A stretch of 64,000 nt of DNA from a bacterium HR11 (GCA_002898535.1 BEHN01000001.1:261564-325563), one strand, 5' to 3'. Numbered from the stretch's first letter, positions 2,273 to 64,000 are shown. A program made the numbers and translations. Notes: generated by a model not told the origin, from the sequence alone.

Positions 2273-2307
2273 CCTTGGCCCCCGTCGTGCGATGTTCCCG
2301 GGCCCCT

Positions 2308-3596: not shown

Positions 3597-3625
3597 CGGG
3601 TTTTCACGAACCGAACGGCCTTGTC
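3597..3625. repeat. Solo terminal-inverted-repeat fragment of repeat family A
   Basis: atgcgggttttcacgaaccgaacggccttgtc is the reverse complement of the family A terminus CAGAGCCGTTCGGTTnGTGAAAAyCCGCaT. Confidence 0.5.
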
Positions 3626-3626
3626 A

Positions 3627-3755
3627 TGCGGATGGGGCCGTGGGCTCATAGGTCATGACCATGAGCCATCAGCTACCAGCCATGAGCCGATATGGGTCTT
3701 GGGTTCCCTTCTCTTGCATCCTGCATCTTGCATCCTGTATCCTGCACCCTGAGGC
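3627..3755. repeat. Short tandem/palindromic repeats: family C (CATGAGCC/GGCTCATGG) followed by GCATCCT heptamer repeats
   Basis: gggctcataggtcatgaccatgagccatcagctaccagccatgagcc, then gcatcctgcatcttgcatcctgtatcctgcaccctg. A second family C block lies at about 22052-22140. Confidence 0.6.
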
Positions 3756-3781
3756 TTCACGCCGAGAGCCCCGGGGGACCC

Positions 3782-4231
3782 ATGGACCTGGACGAAGTCA
3801 TCCGCCACATCCTGCAGACTTATCGGCACATCGCCGTCGTCGGCATGTCCCGAGACCCCAGCAAAGCGGCCTATGGCGTACCGGCCTTTCTGATGCGGCA
3901 GGGCTATGTGATTTATCCCGTGAATCCCCACGCCGGCGAGATCCTGGGTCGCCGGGCCTACGCCCGCATCCTGGACATCGCCGACCCCGTCGAGGTCGTC
4001 CAGATATTTCGTCCGTCGGACCAGGTGTTACCCTTTGTCGAGGAGGCCGTCCAGCGGTCCCAGACTCGGGGAGACGTGCGGGCCGTCTGGCTTCAGGAGG
4101 GGATTCGAAATGAAGCCGCCCGGGCCCTGGCCGAGGCGGCGGGCCTCCTGTTCGTGCAGGACCGCTGTATGCTCCAGGAGTGGCTTCGGCTCAGGCCGCC
4201 TAATTCCAGCCGCTATGGAGGCGTATCATGA
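3782..4231 (+). CDS. CoA-binding domain protein (YccU-like)
   Basis: MDLDEVIRHILQTYRHIAVVGMSRDPSKAAYGVPAFLMRQGYVIYPVNPH is the CoA-binding (YccU/succinyl-CoA-ligase-like) fold signature. The upstream in-frame ORF extension is probably not translated. Confidence 0.7.
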   Translation: MDLDEVIRHILQTYRHIAVVGMSRDPSKAAYGVPAFLMRQGYVIYPVNPHAGEILGRRAYARILDIADPVEVVQIFRPSDQVLPFVEEAVQRSQTRGDVRAVWLQEGIRNEAARALAEAAGLLFVQDRCMLQEWLRLRPPNSSRYGGVS

Positions 4232-5337: not shown

Positions 5338-5367
5338 GGCCGTGAGGCGATAAGGCAGTTATTCTAA

Positions 5368-5627
5368 CAGAGCCGTTCGGTTGGTGAAAATCCGCGTGGA
5401 TTCGGCCTTTTCGACCCTTCGGGAAGGACGGTTTTCAAGCTTTGGCAGATAGGCAGTTCGGCAGGTGGGCAGATGGTCCCAAAAGCCCTGGGGCTGATCC
5501 TTGCCCACCCGGCTTCTATCTGCCTATCTGCCGACCTGCCCATCTGCCGGATGCTTGAAAAATCGTGCTTCCCGGGGGATGGGAAAGATTGTTCCGACGC
5601 CATTCTCACGAACCGAACGGCTCTGCT
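5368..5627. repeat. Repeat family A copy 1: ~260-bp MITE-like palindromic element with terminal inverted repeats
   Basis: The termini cagagccgttcggttggtgaaaat and attctcacgaaccgaacggctctg are reverse complements of each other. An internal palindrome has the arms ttggcagataggcagttcggcag and ctgccgacctgcccatctgccgg. Near-identical copies are at 15383-15627 and 57477-57744, with partial copies at 13629-13700 and 49913-50112. Confidence 0.8.
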
Positions 5628-5711
5628 AAGCTGGCTCCGATCAACCTATCGCCCGGCCTGCTAATCGCCTTACCGCCTTACTGCCTTATTGCCTTGTTCA
5701 TTTGACGGCTC

Positions 5712-10288: not shown

Positions 10289-10462
10289 GGAGCCACCTCC
10301 CGGGGTGCGGACGGACGAAACCCGGCACCCGATCCCTGGCACCTCCATTATAGCGCGGGGGGAATCGTGGGGGATTGGGGACCCGGCGTCGGGTAAGTGG
10401 AGGCGCATGGGGGCGCCGCCGTTCAAGGCGACGCCCCCAAAAGAGGGCCTTAGGCGTTCACG

Positions 10463-13400: not shown

Positions 13401-13585
13401 TCCGTCACGGCCGAGCGTTTGACGCCCGTCTCGGACGTCGCCGTCACCGTCGCCCCCGGCAGGGGCGCACCCTGCGGGTCCACGACCTTCCCGAAGATCG
13501 AGCCGGTCGTGACGCTCTCCTGCGCCCAGGCCACGCCCCAGGCGACGACGGCCAGGAGTCCCAGCCAAATCGCCATCCTTCGCAT
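10463..13585 (-). CDS. TonB-dependent outer-membrane receptor with N-terminal carboxypeptidase-regulatory-like (CarboxypepD_reg) domain
   Basis: 1040 aa. Signal peptide MRRMAIWLGLLAVVAWGVAWAQ, followed by a CarboxypepD_reg domain (GSIFGKVVDPQGAPLPGATVTATSETG ... ANGEFSIPFLTPGRYDVEV) and a plug domain (TYIVDGVNIT). The C-terminus ends in an aromatic beta-barrel residue (LRLGLRFSW). Confidence 0.8.
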   Translation of the reverse strand: MRRMAIWLGLLAVVAWGVAWAQESVTTGSIFGKVVDPQGAPLPGATVTATSETGVKRSAVTDANGEFSIPFLTPGRYDVEVRLEGFAPFKAPVTLSLGQRITLNVTLQPGAEVVVTAAPVVDITATTAGTTVTDELMRSVPVGRTFSAVTYISPQVVTGPAAVGAPNPSIAGATGLENTYIVDGVNITNAAYGALGSYSIVLGSLGTGINFDYVKEVQVKTGGYEAEFGEALGGVINVITKSGGNTFTGDVFGYIQPKALEAKREHIQLVQVPEVYTIGTQQFDVGFDAGGKLVQDKLFWFLAFDPTWNQVERVAPPGFPLSPCGPEEQFCEKSGHTTTRRIYNYAGKLTFNVNPNHILEVSLFGDPGVGDKGLWRDESFLRDIQANVEEALRFGGHNQVGRWTGMFGSNVLVEAQVANHFDETTEKDYANIESIIDLRTTPSRLYGGLGFASVDKNRNLQGALKLTYIVPNLAGRHEFKIGGNFQRLEYEHTTNYTGEKHCFQFYDAATGTIKEKCTTTGNIIRWRTFNSGICTALGFSRPCARVDLRRNRVSPNTLEVSTDYLNFFAQDSWSILPNLTLKLGVRWERQHLKGAGDLAQEVTLSNNWSPRVGFVWDFLNDRKGKIYAYYGRFYEKIPLDAVFRSLSSEESIDIFSAAPLNADPFAWLDYITNLSLQYAAIEYGATPTIWCDGKSFIDKATGQEVSDEPWCKGVKMKAQHVHEFTVGFERQVFEDIVVSARYQRRWIGQVIEDTQLNTAQDIFVTGESQSGLPVDFGTFVVTNPSAKYVCNPGDDVKFYDPSLGVVLGCSSPGQLFPDPKRDYNAFELAVTKRFSKNWQVQAAYRYATLRGHYSGLYFPEYGQSDPNITALYDFPQNDNIMGFTYIDGPLPGERLHVARIFGSYSFNFGLNLGVGLSVESGTPLAPNGCITLYGCGMRYLQKRGTGIQTPEGKLVKRTETIFNADVHADYTFKLGGGRRLALVVDAFNIFNRQAATNYQQNVELEMLEFEETGAPTNPDYGRVTRRSAPFALRLGLRFSW

Positions 13586-14995: not shown

Positions 14996-15052
14996 TGTGT
15001 CGGGTGCTGGGTGTTCGGTCGGGTGCCCTGACCCGACACCCAGCACCGTCTC
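14996..15052 (+). terminator. Long near-perfect hairpin immediately downstream of fae (putative intrinsic terminator)
   Basis: gtgtcgggtgctgggtgttcggtcgggtgccctgacccgacacccagcaccg forms a ~20-bp stem starting 11 nt after the fae stop codon. Confidence 0.45.
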
Positions 15053-15187
15053 GTATCCCGCATCCCGTATCCCGCATTTCGTATCCGGGTGTCTCGGTCG
15101 GAGACTTTCTCTCATAGGGCCTTACCTGGGAGCATGGGCCTTTTCAAGCGTGGTGACGAAGTCCAGGGACGCATAACGAGAGCCAGT

Positions 15188-15327
15188 CTCATCAATCCGA
15201 CGGGACGGGGATCGGACCCTCGATATCCGACCCCAGACCGTAGACCACAGACCATAGACCATGGACCTTAGACCCCGTGGGTCTAAGCCGGTCTGTGGTC
15301 TGGGGTCGATGGTCGGATTTATGAGAT
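15188..15327. repeat. Repeat family B copy with terminal inverted repeats (tctcatcaatccgac / gtcggatttatgaga)
   Basis: Central ccccagaccgtagaccacagaccatagaccatggacc is mirrored by ggtctgtggtctggggtcgatggtc. Confidence 0.7.
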
Positions 15328-15382: not shown

Positions 15383-15627
15383 CAGAACCGTTCGGTTCAT
15401 GAGAATGGCGTCAGAACAATCTTTCCCATCCCCCGGAAAGCACGATGTTTCAAGCATTTGGCAGATGGGCCGTCGGCAGATAGGCAAGTCGGCCGATGGG
15501 CCGGTCGGGCGACTGCCCATCTGCCGACCTGCCGATTGGCCCATCTGCCGAGTGCTTGAAAAATCGTGCTTTCGTGGAGGTGCCCTTTCCGCTTCCCATC
15601 GCACTTCTCACCTCCCGAACGGCTCTG
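15383..15627. repeat. Repeat family A, full copy in inverted orientation
   Basis: Starts cagaaccgttcggttcatgagaatggcg and ends cacctcccgaacggctctg. The internal ggcagat(a/g)ggc... palindrome is conserved. Confidence 0.8.
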
Positions 15628-16423: not shown

Positions 16424-16528
16424 ATTCGGGAATTCGGGAGTTCGGGCATTCGGCCGTCGGGCCGTCGGGCCGTTCGGGCGCCGCCCGACTTCCCACGGCC
16501 GGACTGCTGAATTCCCGGTATCCTTCCG
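16424..16528. repeat. Repeat family D: tandem GAATTCCCG / TTCGGGC-type short repeats
   Basis: attcgggaattcgggagttcgggcattcggccgtcgggccgtcgggccgttcgggc ... gaattcccgg. Related blocks are at 22830-22875, 47168-47325 and 57796-57885. Confidence 0.6.
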
Positions 16529-32063: not shown

Positions 32064-32206
32064 TCCATCCGACCATAGACCATAGACCACAGACCACGGA
32101 CCATAGACCGGCTTGGGCCCAGGAGCTCCATGGTCCATGGTCTATGGTCTATGGGCTGTGGTCGGATATCGAAGGTCCGATCCCGGTCCCGTCGGATTTA
32201 TGAGAT
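32064..32206. repeat. Repeat family B copy (terminus gtcggatttatgag)
   Basis: ccgaccatagaccatagaccacagaccacggaccatagacc ... ggtccatggtctatggtctatgggctgtggtcggat ... cgtcggatttatgagattgg. Confidence 0.7.
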
Positions 32207-49912: not shown

Positions 49913-50112
49913 CACAGCCGTTCGGTTCGTGAGAATGGCGTCAGAACAATCTTTTCCATCCCCCGGAAAGCGCGATGTTTCAAGCATTCGGCAGGTGGGC
50001 AGTCGGCAGGTTGGCAGGTGGGCAGTCGGCAGATAGGCAGGTTGGCAGATGGGCAGTCGGCAGGTCGGCCGAGAGTCCCAAAAAGCCCTGCCATCCGGGG
50101 CTCTATCAGCCC
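49913..50112. repeat. Repeat family A, partial copy plus tandem GTCACTTCGTTACTTCGTCACTCC units
   Basis: It begins cacagccgttcggttcgtgagaatggcgtcagaacaatc. There follows a run of ggcag(g/a)t(g/t)ggcagtcggcag units, then gtcacttcgttacttcgtcactccgtcacttcatcgc. Confidence 0.65.
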
Positions 50113-52046: not shown

Positions 52047-53156
52047 TCATTCGCTGTGGGGCCGGATCTGGAAGCGCTTCTCGAGGTCCTTCATCCGCTC
52101 GACGATGCCGCCGTATTCGAGCTCCTCGTAGGGGAGCATGGCGGGGCCGAAGAAGCCCTGCCGCCGGAGCTCGAGGGCCTTCTCGGCGATGCGGTCCTGG
52201 ACCGACCGCCAGAACGGATGGTCGAAGGGGTCGGCCGCCTCGGTGAACTTCCCCTTGTGGACGCACAGGGCGTGGCAGGTCACGATAGGCGGTCCGTCGA
52301 AGTACGAGACGTGCGTGTTGTGCGGGACGGGCATCAGGGGGCCGTTATGGGACCCCCGCATGAAGCCGGCGACGTAGTGCCCGATGGCGAAGGGGGCCAG
52401 CACTTCGCCAGCCGCCGGGAAGTCGCCCTGGACGCGGACGATCATGACGGGGTCGTCCTTGCCGACGTACTTGCCGGCGATGTTCCGAAGCCGGCTCGTG
52501 CTGACGACGGCGGCCTGCTCGCCCGTGGCCCGATTGTAAATGGCTTCGATGGAGAAGCGCTCCGTGTCCCGGAGCAGGGCGGCCAGGTCGTAAAGGTCTT
52601 CCGGCGTGTTCAGCTCGATGATACGGTCGGCCTCCGTGTAGTTGACGTCCATGACGACGAACTTGAAGCCCTTGCCCAGCTTGGGGCTGAGGATCAGGCC
52701 CGAGCAGAACATGGGGTCGGCGAAGGCCAAGTACAGCGGCAGGTTGTAAGCCCCGGGGCTCGTCTTGTCGGCGGCAAAGAAGAGGAACGGCTCGTTGGGT
52801 CGTTCCTCGAACTCGATCTCGGCGACCATCGGGCCCATGCCCCGGACGTTGCCGGAGAAGGCGTCTTTCAAGAGGTCCTGGCCGGCCCCGTAGAGGCCCT
52901 GGGCCTTGGCGACCTGCGTCCCCTTCATGAAGGCCTCGAAGGCCAGCTTGTGGACGTCGGCGTCGTTGGGGCCCCGGTGATGGGCCATCAGGATGGCGAT
53001 GTCATCGCCCGTATAGCTGACGTAGACGTCCGAGATCAGGTCCCGTCCGTTTTCCCGGACGTACCCCTCGACGGTCTCCAGGAGGGCCCGGGAGGGCTTG
53101 ATGTGGCCGCCGATACTGCCGATATCGGCCTTGATGACCGACAGCGTCGTCTTCAT
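52047..53156 (-). CDS. Bifunctional fructose-1,6-bisphosphate aldolase/phosphatase (class V FBPase, archaeal type)
   Basis: The ATG at 53156 has a perfect gaggagg SD. It reads MKTTLSVIKADIGSIGGHIKPS ... YVSYTGDDIAILMAHHRG ... highly colinear with archaeal/deep-branching FBPA/P. The upstream in-frame extension is rejected. Confidence 0.85.
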   Translation of the reverse strand: MKTTLSVIKADIGSIGGHIKPSRALLETVEGYVRENGRDLISDVYVSYTGDDIAILMAHHRGPNDADVHKLAFEAFMKGTQVAKAQGLYGAGQDLLKDAFSGNVRGMGPMVAEIEFEERPNEPFLFFAADKTSPGAYNLPLYLAFADPMFCSGLILSPKLGKGFKFVVMDVNYTEADRIIELNTPEDLYDLAALLRDTERFSIEAIYNRATGEQAAVVSTSRLRNIAGKYVGKDDPVMIVRVQGDFPAAGEVLAPFAIGHYVAGFMRGSHNGPLMPVPHNTHVSYFDGPPIVTCHALCVHKGKFTEAADPFDHPFWRSVQDRIAEKALELRRQGFFGPAMLPYEELEYGGIVERMKDLEKRFQIRPHSE

Positions 53157-53317
53157 CGTCGCCTCCTCGAATTGATGGGACTGGCCGACGTCGGCCCGGT
53201 CGGGGGCCTGAGCCGACGGATGGCCGGAACGGTCCCCCCAGGACGTAGGCAAGACCATTGTATCGGAACCCATGTCCGATTGCAACCTTTCCCCGAGAGT
53301 CCTAAACTTATCTCGGT

Positions 53318-54015
53318 GGGGGCGAACAGGTTTCGACGGAGGTGCGTGGGAGGACAGGCGGCATGCCGTGGGCCTGTCCGCTCGTCAACTGGACAGGGGC
53401 CAATAAGTGCCAACACCGATCTCGCCCTGGCGGCTTAACCGATAGCCGTCACGCCGCCAGACGGGCGCCCGTCCCGTCTGGGCCGGTGTCACATCACGGG
53501 CTCGGGCGCCGGGTGCGCCTCGGTCCCGGTGCCGAGATCGAAGGGGCTGGTCCTCGCCTTGACCCTGCCCGTCGGGGCCGGCGAGGACGAGAGGTAAAAG
53601 ACGGGCTAAGCATGTAGAAGCCTGTCCGACTGGCCTCCGGACGCGGGTTCGATTCGTGAGGGGTTATAGCGCGCAGGTTCGAAGGCTGTCAATTCGCGGC
53701 TATAACCCCGGAGTCGCCCCACATAGCAATATGTGGGTGAAAACGGGGCTCACATCGGCGAAGCCTACGGCCACCGAATGGCTATGGTAACGCCGAGGGG
53801 TCGGAAGGGGGCCAACCCCAGGCCGGCCCTGTAGAGACTCATCGGCCCGCCGGCCTGGACCGGGTGGGTGGGTCCGAGGAGCGTAGCGGATTGGGAAGAA
53901 ACTTGACGGCTACGCTAAGACGCCCCGCATCCTCGGTCCCGGGAGGGACTCGGGGATGAAGGCATAGTCCAGCCCAGTCCGAAAGGACTGGAGTGCTGTC
54001 CCGCCGCCTCCACCA
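53318..54015 (+). ncRNA. ssrA: tmRNA (ssrA) interrupted by a ~347-nt intervening sequence in the T-loop; mature length ~351 nt
   Basis: 5-prime GGGGGCGAACAGGUUUCGACGGAGG (acceptor and D-analog region). Tag ORF gcc aac acc gat ctc gcc ctg gcg gct taa encodes ANTDLALAA at 53409-53438. The 3-prime region GACGGGCUAAGCAUGUAGAAGCCUGUCCGACUGGCCUCCGGACGCGGGUUCGAU ends at 53651. UCCCGCCGCCUCCACCA resumes at 53999. The acceptor stem GGGGGCG/CGCCUCC has a G3-U wobble (Ala identity). Confidence 0.85.
53652..53998 (+). other. Intervening sequence within the tmRNA T-loop (group-I-intron-like; alternatively a processed IVS)
   Basis: The 5-prime exon ends with U and the insert ends with G. It contains R-like (GUAGAGACUCA) and S-like (CAUAGUCC) elements in the right order, flanking a P8-like hairpin (gcgtagcgg ... 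ggctacgc), plus a GNRA-capped hairpin (cagtccgaaaggactg) just before the terminal G. No clean P1 pairing with a U-G at the splice site could be found. Confidence 0.4.
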
Positions 54016-54110: not shown

Positions 54111-55595
54111 ATGTGGCGTGAGGTCCTGATCACCCAGCTCGGCTCGGAGGCCCTGGTGGCGGTCGTCGAGGACGACCGCCTCGTCGAGTTCCATGCCGAC
54201 GAACCTCAGGGTTCCAGTCTGCTGGGTAATATCTACAAGGGCCGGGTCAAGTCGATCCTGCCCGGTATGGACGCCGCCTTCATCGACATCGGCGAGCCCC
54301 AGGACGGTTTCCTTTATATCGCCGACGTCCGCCCCGTCGTCGCCCGGCTCCTGTACGGCGACACGGATGGTCTACCGGCCGGCCGTTGGAGGCGCCCCCA
54401 GCATATCGGGGACGTCCTTCATGAGGGTGACGAAGTCCTCGTCCAGGTCAAACGGGACCCCATCCAGTACAAGGCTCCCCGAGTCTCGACCAAGATTACC
54501 CTGACAGGCACGTATCTGGTTTACACGCCCGTCCAGCCCCACGTCGGCGTTTCATCCCGCATCACGAATCCTCAGCGCCGTCAGCACCTGAAGGCGCTCG
54601 GTCGGGCCTGGGCCGCCGGCCGGGGCGGCCTCATCTTCCGGACGGCCAGCGCCGCCATTCCCGACGAGACCCTGGAGCAGGAATGGCGGAGCCTGCAACA
54701 GACATGGCAGAAAGTCCTTCGGCTGGCTCGGTCCCGCCCGGCCCCGTGCTTACTGTACCGAGAACCGCCGACCCTGCTCCGCTTGATCCGGGACCTGGTC
54801 AATCCGGGCCTTCGCCGCATCTGGGTCGATTCCCCGAACCTCTACCGTTGGCTCCAAGAGCAGTTGGGCGAACACCATCCCGAGTGGCTTCCCTACCTCC
54901 AGTTGTATACCGACAGCTCGCCCCTCTTTTACCGGTACCAGATCCACCGGGAACTCCAGCGGATCTTGAAGCCCCGGGTGTGGCTGAAGTCCGGCGCTTA
55001 CCTGGTCATTAATCAGACGGAAGCCCTCGTGGCCATCGACGTGAACACGGGGAAGAATACCGGCCTAACGGACTTCCAGGACAGCGTCTTTCGGGTCAAC
55101 CTGGAGGCCGTCGGGGAGATCGTCCGCCAGATCCGCCTTCGAAACCTCGGTGGGCTCATCCTGATCGACTTCATCGATATGACCTCGCCGGAACACTGGC
55201 AGAAGCTCCGAGAGGTCCTGGAGGCCGAGCTCAAGGGGGACCGGATGCGGACCTACATCCTCCCCCAGTCCAGCACGTCCCTCGTCCTCCTGACCCGTCA
55301 GAAGGCGCAAGCCTCCCTCCTCCATCACCTGGGTCAGGTATGCCCCCGATGCCACGGTCGGGCCTTCGTCTACAGCCCCCGGGTCATCGCCTGGGAGGTC
55401 ATCTGGAAGCTGTCCCAAATCAAGAAGGGTCTCTTTCAGCGGGCCGTCGTCCGGGCTCATCCCCGGGTCATCGAGCTCCTCCGGGGGCCTTACCGGGAAA
55501 ACTTGCGGACGATCTGCCGCCAGATCCGGGCCGAGGTCGAACTCCGGGAAGACAGCAACCTGGCGTGGGAATCCTACGACCTGACGTTTCATTAG
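54111..55595 (+). CDS. rng: Ribonuclease G / RNase E-family endoribonuclease
   Basis: S1 domain (GNIYKGRVKSILPGMDAAFIDIG), DNase-I-like catalytic region (ALVAIDVNTGK ... GGLILIDFIDM) and Zn-link CPRCHG. The start is taken at the ATG at 54111 (MWREVLITQ), because the listed ORF start at 54036 would overlap tmRNA. Confidence 0.85.
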   Translation: MWREVLITQLGSEALVAVVEDDRLVEFHADEPQGSSLLGNIYKGRVKSILPGMDAAFIDIGEPQDGFLYIADVRPVVARLLYGDTDGLPAGRWRRPQHIGDVLHEGDEVLVQVKRDPIQYKAPRVSTKITLTGTYLVYTPVQPHVGVSSRITNPQRRQHLKALGRAWAAGRGGLIFRTASAAIPDETLEQEWRSLQQTWQKVLRLARSRPAPCLLYREPPTLLRLIRDLVNPGLRRIWVDSPNLYRWLQEQLGEHHPEWLPYLQLYTDSSPLFYRYQIHRELQRILKPRVWLKSGAYLVINQTEALVAIDVNTGKNTGLTDFQDSVFRVNLEAVGEIVRQIRLRNLGGLILIDFIDMTSPEHWQKLREVLEAELKGDRMRTYILPQSSTSLVLLTRQKAQASLLHHLGQVCPRCHGRAFVYSPRVIAWEVIWKLSQIKKGLFQRAVVRAHPRVIELLRGPYRENLRTICRQIRAEVELREDSNLAWESYDLTFH

Positions 55596-55597
55596 GT

Positions 55598-55862
55598 AAG
55601 ACCATAGACCATGGACCATAGACCACGGACCACGGACCCCCAACGATAGACCGGGCCGGGCGGACCGAGCCTCCCCGTTGTGGAGAAGGAGTCTCATAAA
55701 TCCCCCCTACAGGGGAAGACCTGGAGATGGGTTCTCAGCCATCCTCTCGAGACGAGGCGCTCCCCCTTGGCCCAGTCAGGTCTAAGGCCTATGGTCCATG
55801 GTCTATGGTCCATGGTCTGACATGGAGAGTCCGACCCCGGTCTCATCGGATTGATGAGACCG
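55598..55862. repeat. Repeat family B, large composite copy (two palindromic arms around a unique core)
   Basis: gaccatagaccatggaccatagaccacggaccacggacc ... gtctcataaatcccc ... ggcctatggtccatggtctatggtccatggtctgac ... ggtctcatcggattgatgagaccgc. Confidence 0.7.
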
Positions 55863-55921
55863 CTTCGAGACACCGGATGAGAGCCTCGTAAACCGTTTGA
55901 TGCGACGGGTCGTGGTGGGGC

Positions 55922-56434
55922 ATGGTGGAGCGACCATACTGTGTGGCCGGTATCGACCCCCACAAGGACTTCATCGCCGTGGCCGTCCTGGCCCCCGACC
56001 GGGTCGTCCGGGTCGGCGTGATCCGGTGCGAGCCCTTCGTCCGCCTGCGACGGCGACTGGAACGTATCCTGGCCGACGTCCGCTACGTCGGCATCGAGTG
56101 GCCCTATCTGGGCAAGAGTCCCCACAGCTATGCGACGGTCCTGGAAACGGCGGCGACCGTCCGGACGCTCGTCCGCCTGATGGGGATCCCGAGCGTGCGT
56201 GTCCGGGGGAGCCAGTGGATGCGGGTTCTCCGGGTCCGACGCCGAACGCGAGCTTACCTCAAGCAGGCGGCCCGGCGCCTGGCCCGGCAGGCCACTCGGC
56301 GAAGCCTGACCTCGGACCAGAGCGACGCCGTCTGCATCGGCCTCTGGCTCCTGGACCGCCTGGTCGTCCACGGCCGCCTGGACCCACCCGTCCCCCTCCT
56401 GGAACGCACGGGCCTCCGGCCTGGGGGTCCATAG
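55922..56434 (+). CDS. RuvC-like (RNase H-fold) Holliday-junction-resolvase family protein
   Basis: 170 aa with acidic residues at RuvC-equivalent positions (AGIDPH, VGIEWPY, SDQSDAVCIGLW). It is isolated from any ruvAB. Confidence 0.45.
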   Translation: MVERPYCVAGIDPHKDFIAVAVLAPDRVVRVGVIRCEPFVRLRRRLERILADVRYVGIEWPYLGKSPHSYATVLETAATVRTLVRLMGIPSVRVRGSQWMRVLRVRRRTRAYLKQAARRLARQATRRSLTSDQSDAVCIGLWLLDRLVVHGRLDPPVPLLERTGLRPGGP

Positions 56435-56508
56435 TGCAGACCATAGACCACGGGCCCCAGACCTCTACGGTCCGTGGTCTATCGTCCATGGTCGATGGTC
56501 TTGGGTCC

Positions 56509-57390
56509 ATGGTCCATAACGTGCCTGCGCTGTCGGCTTGGCGGGCGGCCCTGGAGGCCCTGGTCCGTCGATTTCCCCGGCCGCAGACGCCCGGGGACGA
56601 CCCCCTGGCCTTCGCTTACCGGTATGACGACCCCCACGACCGGACGGTCGTCGCCTATCTCGTCAGCTTTCTGGCTTTCGGCCACGTGCAGGCCATCGCC
56701 CGGGCCGTCGAGCCCCTCCTTGACCGCCTCGGCCCCCGACCGAGCCGGGCCCTCGTCGAGGCCGCCCGGGCCGACCTGCGTCGGTGGGTCCACGGGTGGC
56801 GCTATCGCTTCGTCCCGGCCGAGGCCCTCTACGGGCTCCTCGCCTGGATTCAAGACCGGCTTGCGCGATGGGGGTCGCTGGAAGCGTACTTTCGGGCGGC
56901 AGTCGAGAGGTCGCCTTCCCTGCGGGACTTTGCCGAGGCTCACGGTCAGGCCGGTCGCCGATTCTTCCGCCGTCACGTCTCGAGCGTATCCCCGGTGAAG
57001 GCCCGGTTTCTCTTCCCGCTCCCGCCTCGGAGCGCCTGCAAACGTTTGGCCCTGTTTGTCCGGTGGATGACCCGCCGGGCGCCGCCGGACCTGGGTCTTT
57101 GGGACTTCTGGCCCCGGGCCTGGGTGTTCGTTCCCCTCGACACCCACATGGCCTTTCTGGCTCGTTTGTGGGGCTGGGCGGACCGGCGGGCCCCGGACTG
57201 GGCCTTCATGGAGCAGGTCGCTTCCGTCTTGGCCGCCCTCTGTCCGGAAGATCCGCTTCGGTACGATTACGCCATCGCCCACCTGGGGATCCGTCGTCTC
57301 TGTCATCGCCGGCCGGAGCTTCGGCGGTGTGGGGTATGTCCCATGCGGAGCGTTTGCCCCTATCCGGCTGGAAGCGATCCGTGTGGGTGA
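56509..57390 (+). CDS. DUF2400/TIGR02757-family protein with C-terminal 4-Cys motif
   Basis: The ATG at 56509 reads MVHNVPALS. The listed 497-aa ORF's N-terminus runs through repeat DNA and over the upstream gene and is rejected. C-terminal CHRRPELRRCGVCPMRSVC gives C-x8-C-x2-C-x5-C. Confidence 0.6.
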   Translation: MVHNVPALSAWRAALEALVRRFPRPQTPGDDPLAFAYRYDDPHDRTVVAYLVSFLAFGHVQAIARAVEPLLDRLGPRPSRALVEAARADLRRWVHGWRYRFVPAEALYGLLAWIQDRLARWGSLEAYFRAAVERSPSLRDFAEAHGQAGRRFFRRHVSSVSPVKARFLFPLPPRSACKRLALFVRWMTRRAPPDLGLWDFWPRAWVFVPLDTHMAFLARLWGWADRRAPDWAFMEQVASVLAALCPEDPLRYDYAIAHLGIRRLCHRRPELRRCGVCPMRSVCPYPAGSDPCG

Positions 57391-57476
57391 AAAGGCCCGA
57401 CGGGTGGGTGAAAAGGCCCAGCGGCCAGGGGCGAAGAGCCCAAGGCATAGAGCCCAAGGCAGAGCAACTGTCTTGA

Positions 57477-57744
57477 CAGAGCCGTTCGGTTGGTGAAAAC
57501 CCGCATGGATTCGGCTTTTTCGACCCTGCGGGAAGGACGGTTTTCAAGCTTTGGCAGATAGGCAGTTCGGCAGATGGGCAGATGGTCCCAAAAGCCCTGG
57601 GGCTGATCCTTGCCCACCCGGCTTCTATCTGCCTATCTGCCGACCTGCCCATCTGCCGGATGCTTGAAAAATCGTGCTTCCCGGGCGTTGGGAAAGGCCG
57701 TCCCGACGCCATTCTCACGGGCCGAATGGCTCTGCTAACTTTCC
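57477..57744. repeat. Repeat family A, full copy (near-identical to 5368-5627)
   Basis: cagagccgttcggttggtgaaaacccgcatggattcggc ... cgacgccattctcacgggccgaatggctctg. The internal ~200 bp is almost base-for-base identical to copy 1. Confidence 0.85.
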
Positions 57745-57795
57745 GCCTCCTCCTGTCGCCGACCGCCGGCGCTGGCCTCCAGGCCTTATATCTGC

Positions 57796-57885
57796 CCCGG
57801 CCGGCCCCCAATGCCCGGGTTCCCGAACTCCCGAATTCCCGGATTGCCGAACTCCCGAATTCCCGAATGGTATAATCGGACTTCC
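57796..57885. repeat. Repeat family D tandem array (CCCGAATTCCCG / CCGAACTCCCG units) overlapping the histidine-kinase upstream region
   Basis: cccgggttcccgaactcccgaattcccggattgccgaactcccgaattcccgaatgg. Confidence 0.65.
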
Positions 57886-57903
57886 GAAGAGGGGAGGTCG
57901 GCG

Positions 57904-59304
57904 ATGCGGTCGATAGCCCTCAAGATTTCTATCCCCATCATATTAAGTATATTTATATTTTTTGGAATTTTGGGGTATCACACCTACACGGAGCGGCGGG
58001 CGGCGTTCCGACGCCTCGTCGAACAGGACGCCCAGGCGGTCCTCCGGGTCGTCGCCCAGGGGATCGCCCTCCTGATGGAGGCCGAATCCCGGGACCACGT
58101 CCTGGAATTGATGCGGAGCGCCCGGACCGAGATAGGGGCCTTCTATCTGGAGGCCCGTTCGCCCGACGGACGCTATACCCTCCGGGCATCGGACCCCGCG
58201 GCAATCCCCCAGGGGTCGACCGAGTGGCTCCAAGTGCGAGTGCCTCTACCGGCTCGGAATACCTGCCGCCGATGTCACACGATGGCTACTCAGACAGAGG
58301 GATATTTAGAGGTCCGACGGAACATCGGTCCCCTAATGGCCATGGCCCGTTCTTGGTACACCCGGGCGAGTCTGACCCACCTTCTGGCATCGATCTTGCT
58401 TAGTCTATCCATTGCCGTGACGGTCCACTGGACCGTTCGGCGACCCCTCCAGCGGCTGATCGGAGCCATGGAACGGGTAGCCCAAGGCCATTGGGACGTG
58501 ACCTTACCGATTCAGGGACAGGACGAGATCGCCGCCCTGGCCCGCCACTTCAACTCGATGCTGGAGCGGCTCCGGGCGTATCAGGAGGAGCGGGAACGGG
58601 AACAGCGAGCCAAGCTCCAGCAGGCCGAGCACATGATGACGGTCGCCGAGATGGCCGCCTCGCTGGCGCATGAGCTCAAGAACCCCCTGGCCGGCATCCA
58701 GTCGGCGTTGACGGTCCTATTTGAGCAGGAGGACCTCCGGCCGGAAGCTCGAGAGGTCTACGAGTCCATCATTCAGGACCTGAGTCGTATTAACCAAGTC
58801 CTGGAGGACCTCTTGCAGTACGCGCGGCCCCGGCCCATCGAGTGGACGGCCGTAGACCTGGGGAGCCTGGTCGAGTCGGTCGTCCACCGGGTTCTTCCGA
58901 TAGTACGGGAAAAGGGCCTCCAGCTTCATACAGACCTGACGGCCGACGTCCCCGTCGTCCAGGCCGACCCCCATCAACTTCATCAGATGCTGTACAATTT
59001 ACTCCTCAACGCCATCCAGGCGACCGACGAAGGGGGCCGGGTGACGGTCGGTCTTCGGTCCCGTCCGGAGGCCGATGAGGTCGAGCTGTGGGTCGAGGAT
59101 ACGGGCCACGGGATTCCGCCCGACAAGCTGGACCTCGTCCTCAAGCCTTTCTATTCGACGAAACCGGGCGGGACCGGCTTAGGACTTCCTATTTGTTTGC
59201 GGATCATCGAAAACCATGGAGGGCGGCTCTCGATCGAGTCGGAAGTCGGTCGGGGCTCGACCTTCCGGGTCTACCTCCCCATCCGGGGGGCAGGTCGTGC
59301 ATGA
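57904..59304 (+). CDS. Sensor histidine kinase (TM sensor, HAMP, HisKA, HATPase_c)
   Basis: The ATG at 57904 reads MRSIALKISIPIILSIFIFFGILGY (TM). A HAMP domain is followed by an H-box (MAASLAHELKNPLAGI), N-box (LYNLLLNAIQAT) and G-boxes (DTGHGI ... GTGLGL). Confidence 0.85.
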   Translation: MRSIALKISIPIILSIFIFFGILGYHTYTERRAAFRRLVEQDAQAVLRVVAQGIALLMEAESRDHVLELMRSARTEIGAFYLEARSPDGRYTLRASDPAAIPQGSTEWLQVRVPLPARNTCRRCHTMATQTEGYLEVRRNIGPLMAMARSWYTRASLTHLLASILLSLSIAVTVHWTVRRPLQRLIGAMERVAQGHWDVTLPIQGQDEIAALARHFNSMLERLRAYQEEREREQRAKLQQAEHMMTVAEMAASLAHELKNPLAGIQSALTVLFEQEDLRPEAREVYESIIQDLSRINQVLEDLLQYARPRPIEWTAVDLGSLVESVVHRVLPIVREKGLQLHTDLTADVPVVQADPHQLHQMLYNLLLNAIQATDEGGRVTVGLRSRPEADEVELWVEDTGHGIPPDKLDLVLKPFYSTKPGGTGLGLPICLRIIENHGGRLSIESEVGRGSTFRVYLPIRGAGRA

Positions 59305-59323
59305 CATAGATATTTCGGGAAAG

Positions 59324-60697
59324 ATGAAGGTCCTTATCATAGACGATGAAAAGCTCCTCCGGTGGTCCATCGCCCAGAAGCTTCGGGCCTGGGGGTATAC
59401 GCCCCTGGAGGCCCGTACGGGCAAGGAGGGCCTTCGGCTGTTTCGGTCCATGTACCCGGACCTCGTCCTGCTGGACCTGCGGCTTCCTGACGAGGACGGG
59501 ATGGAGCTTTTGAAGACCTTTCGGAGCGAGGACCCCGACGTTCCCATCGTCGTCATCACGGCTTACGGGAGCGTCGACGAGGCCGTTCAGGCGATGAAGC
59601 TCGGGGCCGACGACTTCATGACGAAGCCCCTGGACTTTACCCGTCTTCAAGTCACCCTGGAGCGCCTCCTGGAGAACGTCCGGTTGAAGCGCAAGGTCCG
59701 GACCCTTGAGGCCGGTCCGTGGACGCTCGATGCCGTCGTCACCGAGTCACCGGCGATGAAGGTCATCGTTCGGGACCTGCGGCGGATCGTGACGGCGATG
59801 CCCTCCAGCGTCCTCATCACGGGCGAGAGCGGTACGGGCAAGGACCTGCTGGCCCGGGTCCTGCATTACTCATCCGACCGGGCCTCGGGTCCTTTCGTCG
59901 TCGTGGATTGTACGGCCATCCCGGAGACCCTTATCGAGAGCGAGCTCTTTGGGTACGAGCGGGGGGCCTTCACGGACGCCAAGACGAGCAAGAAGGGGGC
60001 TTTCTTGCTGGCCAACGGCGGGACCCTCGTCCTGGACGAGATCGGCGAGATGCGGCCTTCCCTGCAGGTGAAACTCCTCCGGGTCTTGGAGGACCGGGCC
60101 TTTCGGCCCCTCGGGGGGACGATGGACATCGCGGTCAACGTCTGTGTCATCGCGACGACCAACCGCGACCTGGAGGAGGCCGTCCGGCGGGGCGAATTCC
60201 GGAGTGACCTCTACTACCGGCTGAACGTCGTGCGGATTCATATCCCGCCCCTGCGGGAGCGGAAGGAGGACATCCTACCCCTGGCGATGGCCTTTGTCCG
60301 TCAGTTCAACGCCCAATTCCGCCGGCACGTCCAGGGGTTCACGGAAGAGGCCGCCCAAGCCCTGCTCCAGCACCCCTGGCCTGGCAATGCCCGAGAGCTT
60401 CGGAATGTGATCGAGCGGGCCATGATTCTGTATGATGTTCCCTTACTGGACACGGCCCACCTGGGTCTTCGGCCGACGGCGCCGCCCAGTCTGTTTCGTT
60501 TGCCCCCGGAGGGGATCGACTTGGAGAAGCTGGAGGAACAGCTCATCCTGCAGGCCCTGGAGATGGCGCAGGGGAACAAGACGCAGGCCGCCCGGCTCCT
60601 GGGCCTGTCCCGGGACGCCTTCCGGTATCGGCTAAAGACGATCCTGGAACGTCGGGGGATGTCGGAGGACGCCTCCTTTTCGATGCAGGATGCATGA
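59324..60697 (+). CDS. Sigma-54-dependent response regulator (NtrC family: REC, AAA+ sigma54-activation, Fis-type HTH)
   Basis: REC domain (MKVLIIDDEKLL ... DLVLLDLRLPDEDG). Sigma-54 interaction domain (GESGTGKDLLARVLH, GAFTDA, ESELFGYERGAF), followed by a C-terminal HTH (KTQAARLLGLSRDAFRYRLK). Confidence 0.9.
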   Translation: MKVLIIDDEKLLRWSIAQKLRAWGYTPLEARTGKEGLRLFRSMYPDLVLLDLRLPDEDGMELLKTFRSEDPDVPIVVITAYGSVDEAVQAMKLGADDFMTKPLDFTRLQVTLERLLENVRLKRKVRTLEAGPWTLDAVVTESPAMKVIVRDLRRIVTAMPSSVLITGESGTGKDLLARVLHYSSDRASGPFVVVDCTAIPETLIESELFGYERGAFTDAKTSKKGAFLLANGGTLVLDEIGEMRPSLQVKLLRVLEDRAFRPLGGTMDIAVNVCVIATTNRDLEEAVRRGEFRSDLYYRLNVVRIHIPPLRERKEDILPLAMAFVRQFNAQFRRHVQGFTEEAAQALLQHPWPGNARELRNVIERAMILYDVPLLDTAHLGLRPTAPPSLFRLPPEGIDLEKLEEQLILQALEMAQGNKTQAARLLGLSRDAFRYRLKTILERRGMSEDASFSMQDA

Positions 60698-60722
60698 TAT
60701 TCGGGATAGAGGGAGGGGTAAG

Positions 60723-62789
60723 GTGGGTGGTTTTCGGAGGGGGCTCTTTTGGGCCTGGGGGAGCCTCATCGGTCTGGCGGCTTTGGCGTGGGCTCAAACG
60801 CCGCCCTGTCAAACGTGTCATAAGGACGTCCATATCACGTCCCCGGCCCATGCCGACCTGGACTGTATGGATTGCCACTCCAACGTGACGAAGGTCCCCC
60901 ATCCGCCCAAGCTCTTGAAGCAATTGGGCGGCGACGCTCTCTGTCGGCAATGTCACGACGACGTCGTTCCCCAAGTCGCCGCCAGTGTCCATGGGCCTGG
61001 AGCCTGTGGCGACTGTCACGGACCGGCCCACGAGATCCCGCCCCCCCGATGGACCGTCTGTGGGGACTGTCACGCGGAGGCGACGGAAGCCTTTCAGGCC
61101 AGCTCTCATCGAAAGAGTCTGAACTGTAGCTCCTGCCATGAAGTCGTTCACGCCATTCGGTCCCCGAAACGACCCGGCTCGAGGGTCCACCCCTTCCAGC
61201 AGATTCAAACCTGCGGGACTTGTCATGGGAAGCCGCCCCAGCTCATCGACGGATACCTCCAGAGCGTCCACGGCCGGGGCCTGCTCCTGGCCGGCCTGGC
61301 CACAGCACCGGCCTGTAGCGACTGTCACGGAAGTCATGGGGTCTTTCCGGTCCGGGACGTCCGCTCGACGGTATCGGCCCGAAATGCGCCCCTCACGTGC
61401 GGGCGGTGTCACGTGGGCGTCCTGGACGTATGGTCGAAAGACAGCGTCCACGGCCAGCTCTGGCGGGCGGGCCGGACCGGGGGACCCGTCTGCACGACCT
61501 GTCACGGGTCTCACCGGATTCAAGAGCCGAGGGCCGGCATCCAACGCTTGAAGTTTCCCGAGACCTGCGGCGGGTGTCACGGGGAGCGGTACCACACCTA
61601 CCGGGACGGATTCCACGGGCAGGTCACGGCCCTTGGATTCCTGACGGCGGCCATCTGTTCGGACTGCCATACGCCGCATCAGAACGAACCGGCCCGGGAC
61701 CCGAAGTCATCTGTACATCCGGCGAATCTGACTCGAACCTGCGGTCGGTGCCACGGCCCGGTCACGGCCGCCTTTGTGACCTTTGACCCCCATGCGGACC
61801 CCCGGGACCCCCGACGGAACCGGCCGCTTTATTACGTATGGCTCTTCATGACGGGCTTGCTGGTGTTCGTCTTTGGATTCTTCGGGATTCACACCCTCCT
61901 CTGGCTTCAGCGATCGGTCGTGGGCGCGCTCCGGGGAGAGTTTCACTCGATCCGGCGATGGAAGGGGGAGACCGTCTGGGTCCGACGATTTTCGCCGGTC
62001 CACATGTGGACCCACGTGGCCATCGTCGTGAGTTTTCTGCTCCTGGCCGCCACGGGCCTGCCCCTCAAGTACCACGATACCCGGTGGGGACCGGTCCTCG
62101 CTTCGTGGCTGGGCGGCGTCGAAACGACCCGCCTGCTTCACCGGGCCGGGGCCGCGATCACGTTCGGATACGCCGTTTTCCATTTGGGTTACATCCTTTA
62201 CTGGGCGGCCTTCCGGGGGGACCGGGGGATCCTGTGGGGCTGGCGGTCGATGATGCCCCGGTGGCAGGATTTCATAGACCTCTGGCGTAACGTCCGGTAC
62301 TTTCTGTACTTGGGTCCCCGACCCCGTCTGGACCGATGGACGTACTGGGAAAAGTTCGACTACTTCGCCGTCTTCTGGGGCGTCGTCATCATCGGGCTCT
62401 CAGGCCTCTTTCTATGGTTTCCCAAGTTCTGGACCCGGTTTCTCCCCGGTTGGCTCTTGAATGCCGCTTTTGTCGTCCACAGCGACGAGGCCCTCTTGGC
62501 CGTGGGCTTCATCTTCATCTTCCACTTCTTCCACAATCACCTCCGGCCGGAGAACTTCCCGATGGACCCCGTCGTGTTCATCGGGAGCCTGCCCCTGAAG
62601 CGGTTTCAGGAAGAACGACCCGCCGAATATCAGCGTCTGGTCGAAAGCGGCGAGCTGGAGAAGTACCTGGAAGGCCCGCCGTCCAAGTGTCAGGTCCGCC
62701 TGGCCTACGTCTTTGGGTTCCTGACGCTGACGATAGGGGTCTTGCTGATTGTCCTCATCCTCGCCACGGCCCTGGGGGCCCTTCGGTAG
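60723..62789 (+). CDS. Multiheme (13x CxxCH) c-type cytochrome fused to a C-terminal membrane cytochrome-b-like domain (CbcL-like)
   Basis: A GTG at 60723 follows ggaggg. Signal peptide, then 13 CxxCH motifs (CQTCH, CMDCH, CRQCH, CGDCH x2, CSSCH, CGTCH, CSDCH x2, CGRCH x2, CTTCH, CGGCH). About 6 TM helices with conserved His (HTLLWLQ, HMWTHVAIV, HRAGAAITFGYAVFHLGY, HFFHNH) resemble FdnI/HydC-type dihaem cyt b. It overlaps the stop of the response regulator. Confidence 0.8.
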   Translation: MGGFRRGLFWAWGSLIGLAALAWAQTPPCQTCHKDVHITSPAHADLDCMDCHSNVTKVPHPPKLLKQLGGDALCRQCHDDVVPQVAASVHGPGACGDCHGPAHEIPPPRWTVCGDCHAEATEAFQASSHRKSLNCSSCHEVVHAIRSPKRPGSRVHPFQQIQTCGTCHGKPPQLIDGYLQSVHGRGLLLAGLATAPACSDCHGSHGVFPVRDVRSTVSARNAPLTCGRCHVGVLDVWSKDSVHGQLWRAGRTGGPVCTTCHGSHRIQEPRAGIQRLKFPETCGGCHGERYHTYRDGFHGQVTALGFLTAAICSDCHTPHQNEPARDPKSSVHPANLTRTCGRCHGPVTAAFVTFDPHADPRDPRRNRPLYYVWLFMTGLLVFVFGFFGIHTLLWLQRSVVGALRGEFHSIRRWKGETVWVRRFSPVHMWTHVAIVVSFLLLAATGLPLKYHDTRWGPVLASWLGGVETTRLLHRAGAAITFGYAVFHLGYILYWAAFRGDRGILWGWRSMMPRWQDFIDLWRNVRYFLYLGPRPRLDRWTYWEKFDYFAVFWGVVIIGLSGLFLWFPKFWTRFLPGWLLNAAFVVHSDEALLAVGFIFIFHFFHNHLRPENFPMDPVVFIGSLPLKRFQEERPAEYQRLVESGELEKYLEGPPSKCQVRLAYVFGFLTLTIGVLLIVLILATALGALR

Positions 62790-62798
62790 CCCGGCTGT

Positions 62799-63872
62799 AT
62801 GGAGGCCTGCATGGTCCGATTTCCCGCCATGGGCAAAATCAGTCCCGAATTTTTCGACCGACACGTCTTCCCCCGGCTGGGCGCCCGGCGGCCTGAGGTC
62901 CTCGTCCTGCCCCGGCACGGCGTGGATGTCGGGGTCGTCCAGATCGGCCCGGACCGGGTCATGGCCGTGACGACGGACCCCATCTACATCGTCCCCCAAT
63001 ACGGTTGGGAACGGGCGGCCTGGTTCGCCTGGCATATCCTGGCCAGCGACGTGACGACCAGCGGATTCCCGCCGGCCTACGCCGTCTTCGACTTCAACCT
63101 GCCGATGGAAATGACCGAAGAGGCCTTTGAGCGCATCTGGGCCGTCATCGACAGGGAGAACCGGAAATACGGCGTGACCGTCATCGCCGGCCATACGGGG
63201 CGGTATCCCGGCGTGGACTACCCGATGGTCGGCGGGGCGACCTTCATCGCCGTCGGTCCCCGGGACCGCTACCTGACGGCCGAGATGGCCCGCCCCGGCG
63301 ACCTGGTCGTCGTCACGAAGGGGGCGGCCATCGAAGCCGTCGGGATTCTGAGTAACACTTTCCCGAATTACGTTCGGGCTCATTTAGGCGAGGCCGTCTT
63401 CCGAAAGGCGGCGGCCCTCTTTGAGCAGATGAGCACCGTCGAGGACGCCCTGACGAGCGTCTCGGTCGGCGTCCGGGATGAGGGCGTCACGGCGATGCAC
63501 GACGCCACCGAGTGCGGGGTCCTGGGGGGCGTCTGGGAAGTCGCCGAGGCCAGCGGTCAGGGGGTCGTCCTGTACAAGGACGAAATCCCCGTCTCGGCGG
63601 AGGTCCGGGCCGTCTGTGACCTTTTCGAGATCGACCCCTACACGGCCATCAGCGAGGGTACGCTGATCGTCACGGTCCGACCGTCTCGGGCCGACGACCT
63701 CCTGGAGGCCCTCGGCGACCGGGGCATCCTGGCCCGGGTCGTCGGCGAAATTCGGCCGCCGGAGCAGGGCAAGGTCCTTATCGAAGGCGGTCAGGCCCGG
63801 CCCCTTGAACACCCGCGGGTCGACCCCTTCTGGGGTGCCATGCAGAAGGCCCTCGAGCAGGGCCTCCCGTGA
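62799..63872 (+). CDS. AIR-synthase-related (PurM-like) protein, HypE/ThiL/SelD superfamily
   Basis: 357 aa with PurM-like N-terminal and C-terminal domains (VDVGVVQIGPDRVMAVTTDP ... VIAGHTGRYPG ... MHDATECGVLGG). No C-terminal PRIC motif of true HypE is present. Confidence 0.6.
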   Translation: MEACMVRFPAMGKISPEFFDRHVFPRLGARRPEVLVLPRHGVDVGVVQIGPDRVMAVTTDPIYIVPQYGWERAAWFAWHILASDVTTSGFPPAYAVFDFNLPMEMTEEAFERIWAVIDRENRKYGVTVIAGHTGRYPGVDYPMVGGATFIAVGPRDRYLTAEMARPGDLVVVTKGAAIEAVGILSNTFPNYVRAHLGEAVFRKAAALFEQMSTVEDALTSVSVGVRDEGVTAMHDATECGVLGGVWEVAEASGQGVVLYKDEIPVSAEVRAVCDLFEIDPYTAISEGTLIVTVRPSRADDLLEALGDRGILARVVGEIRPPEQGKVLIEGGQARPLEHPRVDPFWGAMQKALEQGLP

Positions 63873-64000
63873 TGTTGGGTGTTGGGTCTTGGATGCTGGG
63901 TGCCCGGTAGAAAGACCACAGACCACCGACCCTCGACCTGTTTCGGAAGCCTGGTTCGCTTCGTCTCGAGACGGGTATTCCGATGACTCCGTCAGGTCTA

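Follow-up and report, generated by a model that had tools for sequence, protein, structure and literature searches.

We analyzed a 64,000-nucleotide (nt) stretch of the genome of bacterium HR11 (BEHN01000001.1:261564-325563, hereafter the window), in which three open reading frames (ORFs) at positions 57904-62789, all on the plus (+) strand, encode a sensor histidine kinase, an NtrC-family response regulator and a multihaem cytochrome. The cytochrome, which combines a thirteen-haem c domain with a dihaem b membrane domain, is probably an inner-membrane quinol (or quinone):periplasmic-cytochrome oxidoreductase of the CbcL/MtrH/MtoC family, and the kinase encoded upstream of it carries a haem c motif in its periplasmic sensor domain. 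The host of this module is an unclassified thermophile-associated bacterium, and its closest protein matches come from Acidobacteria genome bins.

The kinase gene (57904-59304, 466 amino acids (aa); assigned by Pfam, NCBIfam and exact look-up) is followed by the regulator gene (59324-60697, 457 aa; assigned by Pfam) and the cytochrome gene (60723-62789). The regulator is called from this start codon in L087, an assembly made independently for the organism, which also places the cytochrome start at GTG 60723. From this codon the cytochrome has 688 aa, and from the upstream ATG 60690 it would have 699 aa. The GTG is preceded by GGAGG and its product opens with a typical signal peptide; GTG 60723 is thus the likely start rather than ATG 60690, and regulator stop and cytochrome gene are then separated by a gap of 25 nt. 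An earlier prediction made from the sequence alone had the cytochrome start overlapping the regulator stop. Such an overlap (8 nt) arises only with the longest ORF and is probably a start-codon artefact. Residue numbers of the cytochrome given below nevertheless count from ATG 60690. The order kinase-regulator-cytochrome is kept in locus L001, whose cytochrome is 86% identical to that of the window.

The N-terminal half of the cytochrome has the features of an exported multihaem protein. A Sec-type signal peptide, (M)GGFRRGLFWAWGSLIGLAALAWA followed by Q (60723-60794, +), was read from the translation with a predicted cleavage between AWA and Q, and the AlphaFold2 (AF2) model of the protein shows a helix at 19-33 and then a low-confidence linker in this region. 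The periplasmic c domain (60795-61799, +) holds exactly 13 CxxCH motifs, all within aa 40-355, and Pfam multihaem domains are significant for the cytochrome. Thirteen further histidines outside the motifs show a conservation of 1.0 within the subgroup of 13-haem relatives, so that each c haem has a candidate second His ligand and all could be bis-His ligated; in CbcL, all nine haems were measured as bis-His (PMC9129911). Together with the six predicted membrane helices described below, these features bear out the original prediction of a signal peptide, 13 CxxCH motifs and about six transmembrane (TM) helices.

The cytochrome belongs to a large and widespread set of proteins. A database search returned more than 7,300 related protein clusters at 90% identity, many of them full-length at 50-59% identity and the best at 86%, and a scan of species-representative genomes found relatives in at least 598 species from many phyla. 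Among 66 homologues, 20 have 13 haem motifs, 45 have 11 and one has 12. The 13-haem proteins are set apart from the 11-haem subfamily by an insertion of about 40 aa (60975-61094, +), defined by the alignment block and its conservation in the subgroup, which adds two haem motifs (C106 and C124) and two histidines (H101 and H114); both the Cys motifs and the His residues of the insertion are conserved within the subgroup. That the cytochrome ORF is decayed or non-functional is extremely improbable: the ORF is intact, its 13 haem motifs, distal histidines and haem b ligands are conserved, and a metagenomic relative is 86% identical to it over the full length. Larger versions of the family, of about 930-960 aa and with 19 haems, were also seen in L041-L086 (e.g. 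L044, L047, L060 and L062), in bins of Bacteroidota, Calditrichota, Chlorobiota, Eisenbacteria and others; several of these loci hold two or three paralogues, and the neighbours of the 19-haem versions include conserved 4-, 6- and 7-haem genes.

The C-terminal part of the cytochrome is a six-helix membrane domain (61821-62783, +), composed of a dihaem cytochrome b core of the FdnI/HyaC type (TM2-TM5) and the extra helices TM1 and TM6. In the AF2 model (predicted local distance difference test (pLDDT) 82, predicted template-modelling score (pTM) 0.71) the helices span residues 378-414, 436-460, 477-508, 554-576, 588-617 and 666-698, and hydropathy analysis gave five strong peaks and a weaker one for TM3. 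A Foldseek search of the PDB with the model returned Escherichia coli FdnI first (1kqf_C; probability 1.00, TM-score 0.77 on the target) and the cytochrome b of hydrogenase-1, HyaC, second (4gd3_A). Furthermore, hhalign aligned the protein with the FdnI sequence at 84% probability and placed H442, H484 and H597 onto FdnI H18, H57 and H155, with H612 and H617 falling in the region of FdnI H164 and H169. The FdnI sequence used here reproduces the known ligand numbering and was hence trusted. All 66 homologues have H401, H442, H484, H597 and H612, at least 90% have H617, and H498 and H615 are conserved as well. The candidate haem b ligands are H442 and H612 on the cytoplasmic side and H484 and H597 on the periplasmic side. 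Either H612 or H617 could be the fourth ligand; we favour H612, because it is invariant and lies 15 residues past H597 on the same helix face. Thus, the paired histidines that the original prediction had likened to those of FdnI, HydC and PhsC correspond to four bis-His positions that are invariant across the homologues; a membrane region lacking such ligands, which would have spoken against the prediction, is not what the alignment shows.

Like the window protein, FdnI (1kqf chain C) and HyaC (4gd3) have a four-helix dihaem fold in which three helices supply the four His ligands. The window protein differs from them in its low identity (~15%), in its two extra helices and in its redox partner, which is a fused multihaem c domain, whereas theirs is a separate iron-sulphur or molybdopterin subunit. 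The domain and structure checks proposed with the original prediction accordingly divided: the fold was recovered, with FdnI as the first Foldseek match, but the Pfam family Ni_hydr_CYTB (PF01292) stayed below its cut-off (21.2 versus 30.1 bits), as did TIGR01583 (17.9 versus 115.9). A precomputed PF01292 match is carried by many of the homologues. The membrane domain appears, then, to be a distant relative of the Ni_hydr_CYTB family in sequence and a clear one in structure.

The CbcL/MtrH/MtoC family comprises proteins of 416-1034 residues with 3-23 haems, usually six TM helices and conserved membrane histidines, with members in 15 phyla including Acidobacteria (Zhong & Shi 2018, PMC6295460). 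Judged by its sequence, the window cytochrome has every structural feature of this family. CbcL itself (GSU0274 of Geobacter sulfurreducens; Zacharoff 2016) has the same arrangement of an N-terminal multihaem c domain and a six-helix FdnI/HydC-type dihaem b membrane domain, with nine haems where the window cytochrome has 13. Fragments of a published CbcL alignment (PMC9129911) match the window protein (...YRRF..H....H....S.LLL...GLPLKF... and ...ERW.YWEKFDF.AVFWG...), and the signatures YWEKFD(Y/F)...AVFWG and VHSDEALLA.GFIF..HFF are common to both. A search with these fragments retrieved six protein fragments of the CbcL clade from Desulfuromonadia and no full-length CbcL. The membrane domain of the window protein aligns with one of them, P0122, at 50% identity over 178 aa (E value 2e-56) and with another, P0121, at 37% identity over 156 aa. 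This degree of similarity indicates that the window cytochrome is homologous to the CbcL clade, beyond mere resemblance, and the homology of the membrane domain supports the CbcL-type architecture, a periplasmic multihaem c domain on a dihaem b domain, that had been proposed for it.

Three of the observations made on the cytochrome weigh against its assignment as a CbcL-type oxidoreductase. The link to CbcL was drawn through CbcL fragments that were machine-read (by optical character recognition) and through fragmentary proteins of the CbcL clade; the Ni_hydr_CYTB score lies, as stated, under the Pfam cut-off; and the 64-kb window holds no other multihaem cytochrome or porin gene. The last point had been anticipated, the original prediction having placed the partner cytochromes outside the window, and L001 has no multihaem gene beside its cytochrome either. 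MtrH and MtoC are encoded beside MtrAB/MtoAB-type genes, as are relatives of the window protein, whereas the window gene has no partner cytochrome genes nearby. Two members of the 13-haem subgroup, P0007 (57% identical) and P0088 (50%), lie beside genes for an MtrA-like decahaem cytochrome and an MtrB_PioB porin (L089 and L091).

In the mechanism that we propose, a quinone would bind near the cytoplasmic-side haem b (H442, H612), a placement that follows from analogy with FdnI and from the discussion of CbcL (bioRxiv 10.1101/2022.08.31.506072). Electrons would be exchanged across the membrane with the periplasmic-side haem b (H484, H597) and would then enter the thirteen bis-His c haems, which would reach into the periplasm and pass them on to soluble or outer-membrane cytochromes. 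Quinol oxidation would free protons to the cytoplasm while electrons moved outward through two b and thirteen c haems, and the yield of this route would be low. The kinase probably reports the periplasmic redox state or a haem-binding gas, through a redox-linked Met-on/Met-off switch at a single c haem, and the regulator would then adjust the expression of the electron-transfer module. We infer haem occupancy, the direction of electron flow and the promoter that the regulator activates.

Electrons could also run in the opposite direction. The protein would then be a quinone reductase, supplying the quinone pool with electrons taken from donors in the periplasm or outside the cell, such as Fe(II); we regard this as possible but less likely. 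Its structural template FdnI, of formate dehydrogenase-N, is a quinone-reducing protein, and two 13-haem relatives lie beside genes of the MtrA/MtrB type, a system able to run either way. MtoC has been proposed to have an inward electron role in iron oxidisers, and the family occurs in Fe(III) reducers and in Fe(II) oxidisers with no sequence feature that separates the two roles (PMC6295460). Set against this, the window shows no sign of lithotrophy, and CbcL, the only experimentally studied member, is a menaquinol oxidase. A second alternative, to which we likewise give a minor share of the probability, keeps quinol oxidation but assigns it to a soluble periplasmic reductase or to general periplasmic redox balancing, outside extracellular electron transfer. 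The lack of porin-cytochrome or other multihaem genes in the window and beside the 86% relative fits such a role, as does the fact that several other family members are also 'orphans' without multihaem neighbours and that NrfH- and NrfA-like genes are found a few kb away from one relative, P0061. Most relatives, on the other hand, sit within multihaem cytochrome clusters, some of them with MtrAB-type genes.

A separate association was seen among the 11-haem proteins, whose CbcL-like gene often lies directly beside a gene for a five-haem protein of ~470-550 aa with a NapC/NirT/NrfH-like segment (L005 12106-13509, L017 12032-13447, L013 1539-3197, L025 1980-3437 and ~25 other loci), in bins of Gammaproteobacteria (Woeseiaceae, Steroidobacteraceae), Acidobacteriota and Myxococcota. 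The five-haem neighbour looks like ImcH, in which case these loci would encode two different types of quinol oxidase next to each other.

The kinase has a conventional layout, with TM1, a periplasmic domain of ~130 aa (about aa 28-157), TM2, HAMP, HisKA and HATPase_c in this order. Its sequence is identical to GBC83845.1, annotated as 'Sensor protein ZraS [bacterium HR11]'. We rejected ZraS as its specific identity (192.6 bits versus a cut-off of 479); the best NCBIfam matches are generic, AtoS/ZraS for the kinase and AtoC/ZraR for the regulator, and all are below their cut-offs. The periplasmic domain contains a haem c motif, CRRCH, at aa 121-125 (58264-58278, +), and this CxxCH is kept in the relatives L001, P0134 and P0136. 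A word-indexed search with the N-terminal 226 aa of the kinase gave no matches, though identical sequences are present in that database. When 1.84 billion representative proteins were searched exhaustively with HMMER, this sensor domain turned up in just four clusters, each of which has the CxxCH.

The sensor resembles the haem c domains of the Geobacter proteins GSU0935 and GSU0582 (3b42, 3b47; PF21563), which likewise are periplasmic domains of ~130 aa between two TM helices, followed by HAMP; in all of them the CxxCH lies towards the C-terminus of the domain, and the position of the distal ligand is occupied by a conserved Met. In GSU0935 the haem is bound through the Cys140/Cys143/His144 motif and the redox-switched distal ligand Met60 (PMC8396549), and Met58 of the kinase (58075-58077) aligns with this Met60. 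A profile built from seven haem-motif sensor domains, the window's included (profile A2), matched 3b42 with an E value of 5e-8 and 3b47 with 4e-7, the CxxCH and the Met being aligned in both, and in the alignment of this profile the Met is the only other invariant residue besides the CxxCH. Against a profile built without it, the window sensor scored 12.1 bits, compared with a maximum of 4.0 in 500 shuffles, but shuffling destroys the motif. The output of the proteins differs, the window protein being a histidine kinase and GSU0935/GSU0582 chemoreceptors, and the window sequence is very divergent. Consistent with this divergence, the direct match of the window sensor to PF21563 is weak (12 bits, E value 0.26, cut-off 27), and we discarded a single-sequence AF2 model of the kinase N-terminus for its low pLDDT (45); both results count against a haem sensor of this type. 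The sensors of L035 and L044 pass the PF21563 cut-off. With moderate confidence, we consider the kinase sensor a divergent haem c PAS-like domain of the GSU0935/GSU0582 type.

The regulator is of the NtrC family by its Pfam domains (Sigma54_activat 218 bits, Response_reg 98 bits, HTH_8 46 bits), and Pfam thus confirms both the regulator and the HAMP-containing kinase in front of it, as originally read. The loop of its AAA+ domain that interacts with sigma-54 reads GAFTDA at aa 214, where the family consensus is GAFTGA. Whether this two-component system is linked to the regulation of the cytochrome is in our judgement evenly balanced. We infer co-transcription solely from the 19- and 25-nt gaps that separate the three genes and from a conserved -10 box upstream of the kinase gene.

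Evidence for the link comes from the recurrence of similar systems elsewhere. Kinases with haem motifs occur within 10 kb of CbcL-like genes in bins of Syntrophaceae, Thermodesulfobacteriota, Calditrichota, Myxococcota, Bacteroidales and Chlorobiota; they carry an N-terminal CxxCH or Cx4CH, mostly with the motif just before the second membrane helix. Behind P0136 (locus L093), a distant relative of the kinase, come a sigma-54 regulator and then three multihaem cytochrome genes; one more cytochrome gene in this cluster has a perfect TGGCAC-N5-TTGC site 40 nt upstream. In a Myxococcota relative, a sigma-54 site with one mismatch lies 120 nt before the CbcL-like gene, and in two loci of Desulfobacterota type a perfect sigma-54 site and an NrfD-family gene come after a kinase-regulator pair. 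At these last two loci (L035 6460 (-) and L043 3951 (-)) the TGGCAC-N5-TTGC site precedes a gene for a 304-aa NrfD-family quinone-interacting membrane protein, and an 'orphan' gene for a 12/13-haem CbcL-like protein is oriented divergently to the whole kinase-regulator-NrfD unit. In L093 the kinase-regulator pair has a cytochrome unit on either side: a Rieske/cytochrome b/multihaem c operon (2097-5634, -) on one and, on the other (8870-13412, +), an operon for three Paired_CXXCH cytochromes together with an NHL beta-propeller protein and one more cytochrome.

A documented system of similar description is found in Geobacter, in which BccR (GSU0598), a REC-sigma54-HTH protein, is required for induction of the bc-cytochrome CbcBA (Joshi 2021), and in which GSU0599 is listed as a two-component protein with two c-haem motifs (PMC8396549). 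Because the two locus tags are consecutive, we take GSU0599 to be the neighbour of BccR. Both systems thus have a REC-sigma54-HTH regulator, an inner-membrane bc-type quinol oxidase and a two-component protein with haem motifs. They differ in that the window cytochrome is of the fused CbcL type and not two-subunit, in that the window genes are co-directional and not divergent, and in that the window cytochrome gene, unlike the BccR/CbcBA arrangement, has no -24/-12 promoter; the likeness is one of description and not of sequence comparison.

Several results weigh against the regulatory link. No -24/-12 promoter was found before the kinase or the cytochrome gene, either in the window or in L001. 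A kinase or regulator lies nearby in only ~10 of ~85 related loci (about one-eighth), and on this count we rejected adjacency to a kinase or regulator as a family-wide trait. Moreover, Geobacter CbcL is expressed constitutively, whereas the window gene immediately follows the genes of a haem-sensor kinase and a sigma-54 regulator. The redox-sensing circuit put forward in the original prediction gains support from two features that the prediction did not include, the CxxCH sensor of the kinase and the recurrence of such kinase/sigma-54 pairs beside cytochrome genes in other phyla, but no sigma-54 promoter was found in front of the cytochrome gene.

These results bear equally on the alternative that the two-component system merely adjoins the cytochrome gene, for instance as a ZraSR-like envelope stress system, with the cytochrome expressed independently. 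The NCBI name ZraS, the generic AtoS/ZraS and AtoC/ZraR matches below their cut-offs, the missing sigma-54 promoter and the lack of such a neighbour in most family members would all suit it. However, the sensor has a conserved CxxCH and not a metal-binding domain of the ZraS type, in an unrelated contig (that of P0136) a multihaem cytochrome operon begins with this kinase-regulator cassette, and a separate promoter or terminator would not fit into the 19- and 25-nt gaps. On balance we consider mere adjacency unlikely.

A possible route for a regulatory link is a sigma-54-like -24/-12 site, TGGCATCGATCTTGC (58385-58399, +), which lies inside the kinase ORF over the TM2 codons for LASILL. It is the only sigma-54 site with at most one mismatch in the whole window, it is found at the same codon offset in L001 (7653-7667) and, as TGGCATCGATTTTGC, in the distant L093/P0136 operon (6482-6496), and it forms the best-conserved island in a four-way nucleotide alignment. 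In addition, it uses rare codons (GCA, 1.6% of Ala codons, and TTG, 9.3% of Leu codons, in ten window genes). Against a promoter at this place, 2.2 such sites would be expected in the window by chance, the amino acids encoded there are conserved anyway, and a third relative lacks the -12 GC. Enhancer-like inverted repeats were not found upstream of the site. We set aside two further observations: conservation of the site between the window and L001 is uninformative, the genes being 82% identical with 27 perfect runs of at least 20 nt, and a terminator-like hairpin at 60664-60676 was dismissed for its 5-bp stem and a site count at chance level. We hypothesize from the sequence comparison that the internal site could be a sigma-54 promoter providing positive feedback on the regulator and the cytochrome. 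More speculatively, and with no great confidence, the kinase and the sigma-54 regulator might form a portable switch for periplasmic redox potential, set before different multihaem modules in different phyla and acting here through the internal promoter at 58385-58399. If so, it would place regulator and cytochrome under redox-triggered positive feedback.

As a whole, the locus is well supported as a respiratory module. Both its family and its style of regulation are already documented; it is not novel as such, and it overturns nothing in the current understanding. What is modestly new is the association of a haem-motif sensor kinase with a CbcL-type gene, the two-haem insertion module and the possible internal sigma-54 promoter. 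CbcL-type proteins are among the few known electron routes from the quinone pool to the periplasm, serving metal and electrode respiration and iron oxidation, and the window adds an example of the family from an uncultured hot-spring-associated lineage without classified relatives. If the regulatory link is real, the three genes would make a compact test bed for how the choice of quinol oxidase is matched to acceptor potential, a question that in Geobacter has so far been taken up for CbcBA and BccR alone.

Upstream of the kinase gene, an extended -10 promoter-like element, TGGTATAAT (57868-57876, +), lies 27 nt before the kinase ATG and is followed by a GGAGG ribosome-binding site. The element is kept as TGGTACAATCGG / TGGTACAAT at the same place in L001, where the intergenic region upstream of the kinase is otherwise different and only 95 nt long, compared with about 510 nt in the window. 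A consensus promoter scan missed it because it has no -35 hexamer; by its position and conservation it is a putative promoter of the kinase operon. Directly before the -10 box and over the -35 position stand six tandem copies of TTCCCGAA (57820-57868, +; Tandem Repeats Finder (TRF) score 70). Further upstream, between the DUF2400 gene and the kinase operon, a long near-perfect hairpin (57541-57669) is formed by inverted octamer arrays of GGCAGATG / CTATCTGC, with TRF arrays at 57553-57585 and 57625-57657 and a stem of about 45 bp. Its RNA fold has an energy of -87 kcal/mol (z = -11.4), and none of 200 shuffles folds as well. The hairpin is not present in the 95-nt intergenic region of L001; it may serve as an insulator or a terminator, or it may be a mobile repeat. 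An Rfam scan of 55000-64000 matched no RNA family.

Downstream, a gene of the AIR-synthase family (62811-63872, +; 353 aa, with Pfam AIRS and AIRS_C) begins 21 nt past the cytochrome gene and may be the last member of the operon. The gene is not a conserved companion of the cluster: L001 has a D-Tyr deacylase gene at this place. Its product scores far under the cut-offs for ThiL, HypE and SelD. Weak AIRS-like genes were also seen a few kb from CbcL-like genes in L004, L011, L019 and L031, maybe by coincidence. The rest of the window is housekeeping in character, with genes for RNase G, DUF2400, IlvD, GltB, DnaG, PriA, TerC and a TonB-type outer-membrane protein. For three putative long ORFs of 681, 826 and 460 aa, at 5670-7715 (-), 7946-10426 (-) and 52056-53438 (+), Pfam gave no match at E <= 1e-5. 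In the ORF at 55897-57390, DUF2400 covers only the C-terminal ~290 aa, and the N-terminal part spans heptamer repeat arrays that read as the protein repeats WSMV/HGP, so that the true start is probably near 56500.

Short tandem arrays of recurring 7-8-nt units, on either strand, are a general feature of the intergenic regions of the window and were not seen upstream of the L001 kinase gene. They occur at 3715-3751, 5516-5548, 10174-10207, 15052-15086, 15235-15274, 15460-15508, 16424-16453, 32071-32163, 49988-50069, 55599-55638, 55791-55817, 56469-56517, 57553-57657 and 57820-57868. The recurring units are AGACCAT, GGCAGATG/GGCAGGTG, TTCCCGAA and TGCATCC, and they recall the cyanobacterial STRR heptamer repeats.

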